Shown here: piece by piece, positions 1,106-64,000 of the stretch
How positions within the stretch are numbered: position 1 is the stretch's first letter
Layout of the letters: the number at the start of each line of letters is the position of its first letter
DNA from: Vicinamibacteria bacterium
GTDB lineage: Bacteria > Acidobacteriota > Vicinamibacteria > Marinacidobacterales > Marinacidobacteraceae
Length of the DNA stretch: 64,000 nt
Direction of reading: 5' to 3'
NCBI GenBank assembly: GCA_963555995.3
Contig: OY821641.1
Span: forward strand, 3,328,001 to 3,392,000
Position numbers and translations under genes: made by a program
The notes under the pieces: generated by a model
The model's database searches: none
What the model saw: only the letters and a program-made list of their open reading frames with translations
Told to the model about the DNA's origin: nothing

Positions 1106-4100
1106 TCGTCTTCGGACCGGACCGCGGGAGCGCGCGCGGGCGCAACCGACACGGGCGCACCGAACGCCTCCGCGAGCCGTTCGGAGAGGCGCTCGATGGT
1201 CGGGTAGTCGAACGCCATCGTGGCGGGGGCCACGAACACCCCGGCGAGCTTGCGGTTCACGCGATTCCTCAACTCCATCGCCATCAACGAGTCCATTCCC
1301 AGATCGAAGAACCCAACGGTCGGATCCGGCGCCGCCGCCAACCGGAGCACGCGACGAACCTCCGTTTGGAGGAATCCCGCGAGCAGGGCCCGGCGCTCTT
1401 CGGCGGGCGCGCGTCGAATCCGCTCCACCAGGTTCCCGGCTGGCTCCGGCGCCTCGGCGCCCGACACCGGAACCAGCTCACGAACCAACGGTGGGGCCGG
1501 CGCTCCGGATACGAACCGCGCCCAGTCCACCAACGCGACAACGCCGCTCACCGTCTGCGCCTCGACGAGTTGTTCCAACGTCCGCATCCCCATCGCCGGC
1601 GACAGCCAGGTGATTCCCAGGTCCTGCATCAGCCATTCGACCTGTTCCTGCTGGCGTCCTCCCATCCCCGCCGCCGCCCAGGGTCCCCACGCCACCGCCT
1701 GCCCCGCGAGGCCCAGCGCCCGCCGGCGCCGCGCCAACTGATCCACAAACGCGTTCGCCGCCGCATAGTTGGTCTGGCCCGGGCTGCCCAGGACGCCCAC
1801 CAGGCTCGAATACAACACGAAGAGATCGAGGTCCAGATCCCGCGTCGCGCGGTGCAGCCGCCATCCACCCAGCGCCTTCGCCCCCAGAACCTCCTCGAAG
1901 CGTGACCAGCTCTGGTTCGGCAGCGCCGCATCCCGGAGTGCACCCGCGCAGTGAAAGACCCCGGCGAGCGGCGGCAGGCCCCCGGCCGGTCCCGAACGCG
2001 ATACGAGCCGCTCCACCTCTCCTTCCTCCGTGAGGTCTCCCCGCTCCACCCGGATCTCCACCCCGCGCGCTCCCCACTCCTCGATCCGCCGCTCGGCTTC
2101 GGCGCCCGGGGCGCCCCGCCCATGGAGCACCAGGGCCCCCGCATCGTGCTCCGCCAGCCAGCCCGCCGTCAGCAGGCCCAGGCCGCCCAGGCCGCCCGTC
2201 ACCAGATACGTCCGATCCGCACGAATCGGAACGGCTCCCGTCGCGCTCCCGGGCTCTTCATCGGGGTCCGTTCGAGCCGGCTCCGTCGCGCCACGCCACC
2301 GCACGAGCCGTGGCGCCCGCCGCACGCCCGCCCGATACGCGATCTCGACCTCCCGGTCCGGACCCAGCAACTCCTCGACGACATCCTCGACGGGCTGCTC
2401 CGGCGCCGCAACGCCTGGGTCCAGGTCCAGAAGGCGCACCCCCAGATCCGGTGCCTCCCGCGAGAGCGATCGCCCGAAACCCCAGAGCGCCGCTCCCGAC
2501 GGCTCCCCACCTTGCTCCTCCGCGAGCACCTGCCCCCCCCGCGTCACGAACCAGAGCCCGGCCGGCACGGCCACTCCCGATTCGGACACCCCCTGCGTGA
2601 GCGCCAGCGCGCTCGCTCCCGCCTTCTCCAGGTCCTCGGACAGCGTTGCCGTGTCCGCCTCGCCGCCCCGGCCGGTCAGTCCTCCGAGGTGCACCACCCC
2701 CCGAAACGGGACGTCCCGCGGAAGCTCCGCGAGCGCCTCCCGCCATGAATCCCGAGCTCGGGAAGCGATCCGCAGTCCCTCATAGCCCTCTCCGTCCGGC
2801 GCGGTTTCGCCCGCGAGGATCACACGCTCGCCCCGTCGCACCAGACCCCGCGCCAATGCCTCGCCGAACTCGAGTCCCCAGCCCTCGAGCGGCGCCGCCA
2901 GCAGCCACAACCCCGCCACCGGCACGCCGTCCGGATCCGACGCCACAGTCGGCCCGTCGGCGGCGCCTGGCAGGCGGGGGGCCTCCCGCCAGTCCAGTTC
3001 ATACAGCGGCTCGATCGCGTCCGAAACCGCAGCCTGCGGCGCCGCCGGCTCTACCCGGGACAGGGATCGGTCCCCCTCCACCCAGTACCGCTCCCGCTGG
3101 AACGGATACGTCGGCAGCGACACCCGGCGAGGCTTCTCCCCGGTGAACAGACCCCCGAACGAAACGTCGAGCCCCGCCTCGTACGCCCCCGCTACCGCCC
3201 GAACCCAGCTCTCGCTCCCGCCTCCCGCCGGAACCGACACCACCCGCAGACCCGCGTCCCCCGGCCATGCCGACGACGCCCGCTCGCCCAGCCCCTCTGA
3301 CGGGCCCACCTCCACCAGCAGGCCCACTTCCAGGTCCGACAGCGTCTCCAGCGCACGCTCGAAACGAACCTCCCCTCCCGCCTCCGAACCCCAGGCGCCG
3401 GCCTCCGGAACCCCTTCCTCCAGACGACCACTCGCGCCCCGCACCAGCGGCACCCCCGGCGGCGACGGCGCCCCCTCCCCACCGCGGCCCAGCGCCAGCC
3501 GCAGCCCGTCCTCCAGCTCCACCACCCCCGACGCGCACGCCGCCGCCAACTCCCCCGCACCGCAACCCCAGACCACCCCCGGAACCACCCCCACACTCTC
3601 CCACAGCGCCGTCAGCCCCGCCTGCAGCGCATACCGCGCCGCCGCCGCCAACCCCGCGTCCTCCGCCGCCCCCGGCCAAGCCTCCGGCGGCGGACACTCG
3701 TCCCCCAGCACCGCCGCGCAGCGGTCCACCACCTCGCGGAACGCCGGCTCGATTCCGTACAGCTCCCGCCCCAGACCCAACCACCCCCCGTCCGCCCCCG
3801 CGTAGAGGAACGCGACCTTCCCGGCCGACGACTCCCGACCCTCACCCCCCACCGCTACCTGCCGCAGCCCCGCGCGCAACGTGTCCTCGTCCCGGAACAC
3901 CACCCCCGCACGCCAATCGAAATGGCTCCGCCCGACCCCCGCCGTCCACGCCGCGTCCGCCAGCGGCGCGTCCTCTCCCAGCCACTCCCCGTAACGGCCC
4001 GCCAACTCCCGCAGCGCTCCCTCGTTTTTCCCCGACAGCGGCAGCAGTCGCCAGCCGCGCTGCGCGAGCGGTGCTGCTTCCTCCACCCCCACCGAACCTG

Positions 4101-63700: not shown

Positions 63701-64000
63701 TCCGGCCAACATCAACTGGTAGTCGCTGCCACACACTCCCCCATAGACCCCCGTGCGGCTCCCCCGGAGACTCCCCGGGGCCAGCCCCGCGTCCTCCAGA
63801 GCCGCCCAACTCACCTCCAGCAACAACCGTTGCTGCGGGTCCAGCAACTCCGCCTCCACCGGCGCGATCCGGAAGAACTCCGCATCGAAGCGGTCCAGCC
63901 CCTCCACGTACCCCCCGAACGAACGCGCGGCCTCCGTCTCCGCGTCCACGAACAACCCGTCCGGACGACCCTCGGTCACCGCATCCAGCCCCGAACGGAG
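51623..64000 (-). CDS. Modular type I PKS (gene A), 5'-truncated by the window; last two modules plus C-terminal docking domain
   Basis: ORF-track 4118-aa protein. Its 'start' at 63979 is an internal GTG inside a KS, since the frame continues [13 protein letters not shown] to the window edge. Motifs: DTACSSS x2, [36 protein letters not shown], TGGLGGxG x2, LGMDSL x2. TGA at 51625-51623. Confidence 0.97.
51642..51650 (-). promoter_or_regulatory. Putative ribosome-binding site of gene B (GAGCGAGGA), within the 3' end of gene A
   Basis: The minus strand reads GAGCGAGG-ATGACG-ATGGCG, placing GAGG 6 nt upstream of the ATG at 51636. Confidence 0.55.
51750..58690 (-). other. PKS module A2: KS-AT0-DH-cMT-ER-KR(His)-ACP
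   Basis: [26 protein letters not shown] remnant [34 protein letters not shown] and [41 protein letters not shown]. Confidence 0.92.
58750..64000 (-). other. PKS module A1: KS-AT(full length)-DH-KR-ACP, no MT or ER
   Basis: KS DTACSSS / EAHGAGT / [21 protein letters not shown] (Ser 62171-62173), [23 protein letters not shown] and [41 protein letters not shown]. Confidence 0.92.

Follow-up and report, generated by a model that had tools for sequence, protein, structure and literature searches.

The 64,000-nt stretch analysed here (the window; positions 3328001-3392000 of contig OY821641.1, called C1 below, from the Vicinamibacteria assembly GCA_963555995.3, called G000) is the middle section of two giant minus-strand polyketide synthase (PKS) genes, A and B. 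They specify a line with 19 ketosynthase (KS) domains, related to the sponge symbiont ubiquitous PKS SupA, in which every acyltransferase (AT) lacks a catalytic residue. Our preferred reading, to which we give a probability of about 0.5, is that the line is still working on malonyl units supplied by an AT outside it and makes a C36 chain with about nine methyl groups derived from S-adenosylmethionine (SAM). What is observed is the order of the domains, the state of their residues, the open frames and the ATs that the genome contains; activity and product are predicted from them. Gene A (15,870 aa, 9 KS) has its 3' part in the window (51623-64000, continuing to 99235; C1 3379623-3427235, minus strand), and gene B (19,619 aa, 10 KS) its 5' part (1-51642, continuing to -7217; C1 3320783-3379642, minus strand), with an overlap of 20 bases at the end of A. 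Together they hold about 35,000 residues (35,489 codons) and 17 elongation modules; an open frame of 17,214 codons within the window and Pfam E-values down to 4e-82 rule out chance. Both proteins were split at the 19 KSs, the modules were aligned, and the catalytic columns were read for each domain.

An AT-derived segment is present in every elongation module, and the Ser-His dyad, as read from the sequence, is complete in none of the 17. Two ATs, those of A02 and A07, retain their full length but have Gly in place of Ser, and fourteen others combine this replacement with an in-frame deletion that takes out the HAFH segment. In B05, for example (23344-23847, minus strand), GCGAG stands in place of GHSxG and about 95 residues including the HAFH segment are deleted, a loss common to the other aligned window relics (A09, B01, B03 and B08). 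The sole AT of the line with an active-site Ser (GHSAG) is that of A08 (61616-62452, minus strand), which reads HAFQ where CurL, aligned with it, has HAFH. In an AT tree (FastTree) the 16 Ser-to-Gly relics form one group (support 93, falling to 82 once relics from other metagenomic proteins are added) with the A08 AT outside it, and the relic deletions are nested, as in a graded decay series. This single group with nested deletions points to early inactivation of the ATs, before most of the module duplications, the modules having duplicated and diverged afterwards. The KSs of A04, A06 and A09, all of them modules with deleted ATs, differ from one another at a synonymous divergence (dS) of about 0.5, with nonsynonymous to synonymous ratios (dN/dS) of 0.24-0.27. 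Related multimodular lines retain an intact dyad in 96 of their 97 distinct complete modules, as do 13/13 SupA-type modules, counts that cover the fetched loci, whose members are kin and not independent, with two duplicate stitched records dropped. Among 300 genomes of the class (9 candidates scored per genome) no close second genome with a deleted relic was found, the best identity being 50-60%, and a scan of JGI metagenomes gave no close A08 orthologue (24 of 78 loci annotated, mostly SupA-type). The idea that the AT decay is unique to this line was rejected, as Gly-type relics also occur in other metagenomic proteins, several of which group with those of G000. Separately, in modules of this family carried by proteins P0122, P0128, P0134, P0135 and P0137, no AT can be detected between the KS and the domain that follows, which appears to show AT loss advanced a stage further in other metagenomes.

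The earlier note on the window had proposed a single malonyl-delivering trans AT, which would make the A08 AT, despite its His-to-Gln change, an in-line donor loading all the acyl carrier proteins (ACPs) of the line. This AT is full length, retains GQGSQW, GHS, the malonyl-binding Arg and HAF, stands apart from the Gly relics, matches contigs from three samples of a single study over 61691-62423 with zero differences, and has an intact closest homologue (P0124). Its candidacy is nonetheless unlikely. AT catalysis uses a Ser-His dyad that is described as required (PMC7327777, PMC9301873). The combination of Ser with Gln is found in 0/328 full-length ATs of the retrieved homologues (His column unreadable in 10), and the A08 AT deviates at 5 of 79 conserved columns, whereas 127 of 134 intact ATs deviate at four or fewer. 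Supply of malonyl from outside is judged likeliest because the dyad is described as required and Ser-Gln was absent from all 328. The genome (3.80 Mb, 70% GC, 2 contigs) is 93% complete by markers, and in a Pfam scan of all of it the Acyl_transf_1 matches outside the line are SupA (intact), a Swf-like PKS and FabD, the last being the only free-standing AT found; none stands alone in the cluster. By elimination, the donor is most likely the intact AT of SupA, 58 kb away, or FabD. FabD-type enzymes can load AT-null modules, a point for which our literature search returned no paper.

Ten modules are complete in the window, all on the minus strand (A1, A2 and B1-B8 of the earlier note are A08, A09 and B01-B08 here). 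Five of them have a complete set of dehydratase (DH), enoylreductase (ER) and ketoreductase (KR) together with a C-methyltransferase (cMT), in the order KS-AT relic-DH-cMT-ER-KR(His)-ACP, and are predicted to leave a methyl-branched, saturated unit: A09 (51743-58681), B02 (38506-45474), B04 (25444-32457), B05 (18460-25389) and B06 (11488-18405). A08 (58742-64000, KS start 64063; KS-AT(Ser kept, His>Gln)-DH-KR(Tyr)-ACP) is predicted to give an alkene and B01 (45535-51540; KS-AT relic-DH-cMT(His>Tyr)-KR(His)-ACP) an unmethylated alkene. B03 (32512-38451) and B07 (5422-11433), both KS-AT relic-DH-cMT-KR(dead)-ACP, would each give an alpha-methyl ketone, and B08 (1153-5361; KS-AT relic-KR(Tyr)-ACP) a hydroxyl. 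The KS of B09 lies at 1-1098 (minus strand), and its module (KS-AT relic-DH-ER-KR(Tyr)-ACP) continues outside the window, where it is followed by the terminal B10, a KS (Cys-His-Asn) with an AT relic and no thioesterase. The gene A modules outside the window are A01 (KS(Ser)-ACP), A02 (KR), A03 (without a processing domain), A04 (cMT and ER), A05 (DH-KR), A06 (DH-ER-KR) and A07 (cMT and ER), so that an ER is found in nine of the 17 elongation modules. A01, in which the KS Cys is Ser, has no AT and also lacks the N-terminal ACP present in several relatives. The counts given in the earlier note (a cMT in eight of the ten modules, full DH-ER-KR sets in five) are therefore confirmed, and its module-by-module colinear reading is supported as a prediction, the catalytic columns showing the dead KRs of B03 and B07, the altered cMT of B01 and the KR-only B08. 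The loading and release parts that it placed outside the window were sought there, and the candidates are A01, the terminal B10 and a linked ACP and hydrolase.

The cMT motif [11 protein letters not shown] occurs in A09 and B01-B07. Among three modules scanned, Pfam Methyltransf_12 was found in A09 and B01 and was absent from A08. In the PDB, the B01 cMT is matched best by that of CurJ (E 3e-62), and the cMT His position (VLHAT) aligns with the His of CurJ. The His-Glu dyad, mutation of which abolishes activity (PMC7327777), is retained in nine of the ten cMTs of the whole line, the exception being B01 (47245-47922), where His is replaced by Tyr (LYAT). All three full-length ATs of the line carry HAF, not YASH, and this, together with the nine retained dyads, supports the proposal that the methyl branches derive from SAM. 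The LYAT variant is also seen in module 4 of the cluster of a second genome of the family (G011) and in locus L086, in all in three genomes and several metagenomic proteins, and may have been retained instead of reflecting random decay. A search of the phylum with the cMT matched 8 of 400 other genomes, with one match each.

The catalytic Tyr of the KR, at a position aligned with the Tyr of AmpKR2, is His in A09, B01, B02 and B04-B06, while the KRs of B03 and B07 carry Ser to Gly, Tyr to Asp and Asn to Asp changes. Across the ten cMT modules of the line this Tyr is His in eight and Asp in two; the other six KRs all have Tyr. A first set of relatives has the His-type KR in 64 of 95 cMT modules (Tyr in 30) and in none of 16 non-cMT modules, and a second set in 77 of 85 cMT modules and 2 of 10 complete non-cMT modules. 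Because of these last two (0/22 in the first count), the strict rule that a His-type KR occurs only with a cMT was rejected. His-type KR sites retain Lys, Ser and Asn. A review allows that the Tyr is 'sometimes replaced by histidine' (PMC7327777), and 13/13 SupA-type modules pair the His-type KR with DH and ER; on these two grounds the His-type KR is likely to be active, and is perhaps tuned to act once methylation has taken place. By standard motif rules it would count as dead, and the 'saturated' assignments of six modules of the line depend on its activity.

These KRs are also the starting point of a further alternative, in which the line works non-colinearly: inactive or slow His-type KRs, or the skipping of modules, would give methyl or gem-dimethyl ketones and a product that is not a mostly reduced lipid. 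The replacement of Tyr in all ten cMT modules would fit, as would reports that lines with dead ATs skip modules and terminate early (PMC9301873) and that gem-dimethylating cMTs exist (PMC7327777). It is an improbable account of the line, given the Lys, Ser and Asn retained beside the His, the presence of DH and ER with the His-type KR in all 13 SupA-type modules, and the separate killing of the B03 and B07 KRs, which would be pointless were the His-type KR already dead.

In the preferred reading, A01 would prime the line and each of the 17 elongation modules would add a malonyl unit delivered by the outside AT. The cMTs would methylate the beta-keto intermediate before its reduction by the His-type KRs. 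B10, as a non-elongating KS, would transfer the chain onto the upstream-encoded stand-alone ACP, an alpha/beta hydrolase would release or transfer it, and the upstream RND protein would export it. With an acetyl starter and 17 malonyl extensions, the colinear product would be a nonamethyl C36 chain (methyls at C6, 8, 10, 12, 14, 16, 20, 24 and 30), ketones at C7, 15 and 33, hydroxyls at C5 and 35, and three alkenes (C18, 22 and 28); the free acid would be C45H78O7, with a computed mass of 730.575 Da. Its C6-C16 part corresponds to the polypropionate-like run noticed in the earlier note. Of the proposal that the product is a polymethyl, mostly reduced chain, the polymethyl part is supported as a prediction; the line has 17 elongation modules, not just the ten seen in the window, and with ERs in nine of them the chain would be only about half saturated. 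The odds that the complete colinear structure is correct are well under even, while the general class (a long, polymethyl, partly reduced chain) is probably right if the line is active. We know of no natural product that matches the predicted structure.

Outside the ATs the line looks functional. The catalytic residues are retained in the KS triad (17/17), the ACP Ser (18/18) and the DH His/Asp (14/14), and there is no stop or frameshift in 35,489 codons (106 kb), in which a neutral divergence of about 0.09% would give three stops. Median pairwise dN/dS values, taken from pairs of paralogous domains that are not independent of one another, are 0.26 for KR, 0.33 for KS and cMT, 0.36 for ER, 0.46 for DH, 0.48 for ACP and 0.55 for the AT relic. 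A sister protein (P0241), 95.4% identical over 3,625 aa, has an open frame of 3,673 aa in which the same AT relic is found. It is conceivable that the cluster died very recently, when A08, its last working AT, lost the His, and that erosion has not begun; no complete AT remains in the line, none stands alone in the cluster, and protein P0138 ends out of frame. We regard this as distinctly improbable, since the undisturbed frames restrict neutral drift to about 0.1%, the A08 AT has five departures while catalytic residues of the other domains are kept, and the sequence is identical in three samples at the stretches checked. Highly implausible is the origin of the methyl branches in methylmalonyl-CoA loaded by an outside AT past idle cMTs, for which the genome has two full-length and two partial carboxyltransferase matches and the donor AT is chosen by elimination: nine of the ten cMTs keep their dyad and evolve under constraint, and the candidate donors SupA (RAFH) and the Swf-like PKS (IAFH) have malonyl-type motifs.

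Several points weigh against a line still at work on outside malonyl. P0138, which is 94.8% identical to B03-B04, loses its frame near its end, either by assembly error or by true decay. The open-frame and dN/dS tests cannot date the His-to-Gln change of A08, and the cluster may have died very recently or A08 may be weakly active; as the closest homologue of this AT is intact, the ancestral line may have relied on one in-line donor, and the change may be recent. At 93% completeness the donor could be missing from the assembly. AT loss is also not confined to this line, the 95 complete modules of 127 retrieved proteins having an AT that is intact in 83, broken in 7 and absent in 5. The number of modules is open to assembly error or strain variation, given exact repeats of up to 4.5 kb. 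B03 and B07 may be mono- or gem-dimethylating, and the acetyl starter, an active A03 and the proposed release step are putative.

A quick KS tree of 142 rows, built without near-duplicate genomes or trans-AT KSs, placed all sponge-type KSs in one group against the outgroups (support 100). Within it, the first KSs of SupA-type proteins form their own clade (support 100), and the elongation KSs of G000 fall among multimodular lines in the same larger group. A01 joins the KS(Ser) loaders, and B10 falls, with support 100, among the KSs that end the Bryobacterales and Rhodothermales lines. Twelve G000 KSs form a cluster-specific local expansion irrespective of the upstream module, and B02-B08 are a recent local expansion. 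Grouping by upstream chemistry was looked for and was not seen, except for an Arg-to-Gln change common to the KSs of B04 and B08, which follow the dead KRs. Against the PDB, the KSs are closer to CurL (E 5e-136) and DEBS than to single KSs of the trans-AT type, which match at E 7e-105 or weaker; the top match, 7zma (E 8e-174), was set aside because its score sums two KS stretches. The closest named PKS relatives are in metagenome-assembled genomes (MAGs) titled Bryobacterales, Rhodothermales, Alphaproteobacteria and Gemmatimonadetes. Of 27 other genomes of the family, 6 hold multimodular relatives (at least 8 KS matches each); the line of G011 is complete, with 12 KSs and working ATs.

The Sup-type kinship suggested in the earlier note is upheld by the KS tree, by the KS-AT-DH-cMT-ER-KR(His)-ACP layout, by the terminal KS with an AT relic and no thioesterase, and by the linked stand-alone ACP and alpha/beta hydrolase (the ACP match is weak, E 1.7e-4). 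SupA is described as a 'small monomodular' PKS (PMC4245539) and has been proposed to make mid-chain methyl-branched fatty acids (PMC4245539, PMC9864124). Unlike SupA, which has an intact AT and a first KS in a separate clade, the present line has 19 KSs in two genes, and the genome encodes a SupA besides. With the multimodular Sup-related cis-AT lines (G011 and loci L021-L077, from MAGs titled Vicinamibacteria, Bryobacterales, Rhodothermales and Alphaproteobacteria) it shares the KS(Ser) loader, serial cMT modules, His- and Tyr-type KRs and a terminal non-elongating KS; those lines differ in having working ATs and few ERs. Loci L021-L077 (Bryobacterales, Rhodothermales and Alphaproteobacteria) are in their own right widespread giant cis-AT lines, with frames above 22,000 aa, a cMT in nearly every module and alternating His and Tyr KRs, and the Bryobacterales L023 set has its modules in the same order as the Alphaproteobacteria L022 set. 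The SA1 PKS of the Discodermia dissoluta metagenome is probably a published member of this multimodular branch; no match named SA1 appeared in protein searches covering proteins of up to 3,968 aa.

By its best solved-structure match, the B01 cMT resembles that of the CurJ module of curacin, whose cyanobacterial hybrid pathway has working ATs and leads to a different product. Like canonical trans-AT PKSs (PksJ/PksL; PMC7930024), the line has modules without a working AT, judging by sequence, and in-line cMTs, and would need its extender in trans. It departs from them in having no free-standing AT in the cluster, large persisting AT relics, KSs closer to the cis-AT type and KSs that have multiplied by duplicating inside the cluster. 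A criterion given for cis-AT PKSs (PMC7930024) is that they grow through module duplication and gene conversion, their KSs grouping within the cluster, and the line resembles these in its KS grouping and in module duplication with exact repeats, though not in having a working AT per module. Loss of the AT Ser in a cis-AT module has precedents in the lines for bengamide, desertomycin and conglobatin and in that for gephyronic acid; inactive ATs are called rare there, with 'at least one' per line (PMC9301873), whereas all 17 are affected here, in a graded series. The line would thus be trans-AT-like in its working and cis-AT, Sup-related in its descent, and is neither a SupA nor a canonical trans-AT PKS.

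The longest exact internal repeat pair measures 4,532 bp (23894-28425 and 16910-21441, minus strand; exact-repeat comparison), and further exact repeats of 2.3-4.3 kb occur among B02-B07. An assembly artefact was rejected for the A/B junction (51341-51914) and the A08 AT, both matched without differences by contigs of three samples. In sample X2 the contig depth over repeated parts of B05 that have 4 and 6 copies in the assembly (depths of 146 and 237) is several-fold that of single-copy parts (39-57); depth is weak evidence on copy number, and no contig spans the repeats. At the junction (51560-51720), an acidic C-terminal helix of A and a basic N-terminal helix of B look like a docking pair of the cis-AT type. 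GC skew is about -0.4 between 6000 and 50000 of the window and about 0 in the rest of the genome, being strongest in the recently duplicated modules, and G occupies 0.68 of third codon positions in gene B compared with 0.46 in SupA.

Upstream of A and B, on the same strand, lie in order genes for an RND transporter, the small stand-alone ACP (C1 3428764-3429159; its match is over the cut-off) and the alpha/beta hydrolase (C1 3427591-3428508). Pfam scans of the neighbourhood found no stand-alone trans-AT or thioesterase beside the cluster. The complete SupA-type gene (C1 3252668-3262744, plus strand; 3,358 aa, His-type KR), at 58 kb from gene B, is accompanied by an ACP (C1 3263953-3264183, minus strand) and a hydrolase (C1 3262965-3264017, minus strand) of its own. 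The Swf-like PKS (C1 1353334-1361538, plus strand) is monomodular, with GHSSG and IAFH in its AT; near it are a third hydrolase homologue, an RND-like gene and the genome's sole match to an ACPS-family phosphopantetheinyl transferase (1341293-1341523). Genes upstream of the cluster (C1 3435336-3437203, minus strand; LysX-like and LysY/ArgC-like) resemble those of a LysW-type amino-acid pathway, and those between SupA and gene B (C1 3297144-3307955) resemble type I restriction-modification and RES genes, possibly a mobile island. The source bacterium may live in sponges, to go by its Sup kinship and by a single run, titled sponge metagenome, with pieces about 90% identical to the locus; the runs with identical pieces give their host as a code, and no RNA run was listed among the sequencing runs holding pieces of it.

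The predicted product class is that already proposed for the Sup-type lineage; what is unusual is the complete, graded loss of ATs in an otherwise conserved 19-KS line. The literature searched, which left most subscription papers outside its scope, gave no account of this line or of any Sup-type PKS with all ATs dead, and the supplements of sponge MAG surveys could list it. The line is likely to be a cis-to-trans AT switch in progress. More tentatively, it may be an independent birth of a trans-AT PKS caught in mid-course, its 17 ATs shed stepwise (loss of Ser, deletion of a subdomain, then the last His) while the modules went on duplicating, run by the SupA AT or FabD without an AT gene of its own and making an undescribed nonamethyl C36 lipid. 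How trans-AT lines arise from cis-AT lines, and whether AT loss or duplication comes first, has been described as unresolved, in that case for algae (PMC4661987). With intact relatives, half-decayed ATs and deleted relics in one lineage and one gene pair, the order of AT loss can be read here, and the malonyl donor can be tested with a few purified proteins. The prediction also gives a concrete mass and structure to seek among the lipids of a widespread symbiont PKS family, whose products are only proposed in the literature covered.

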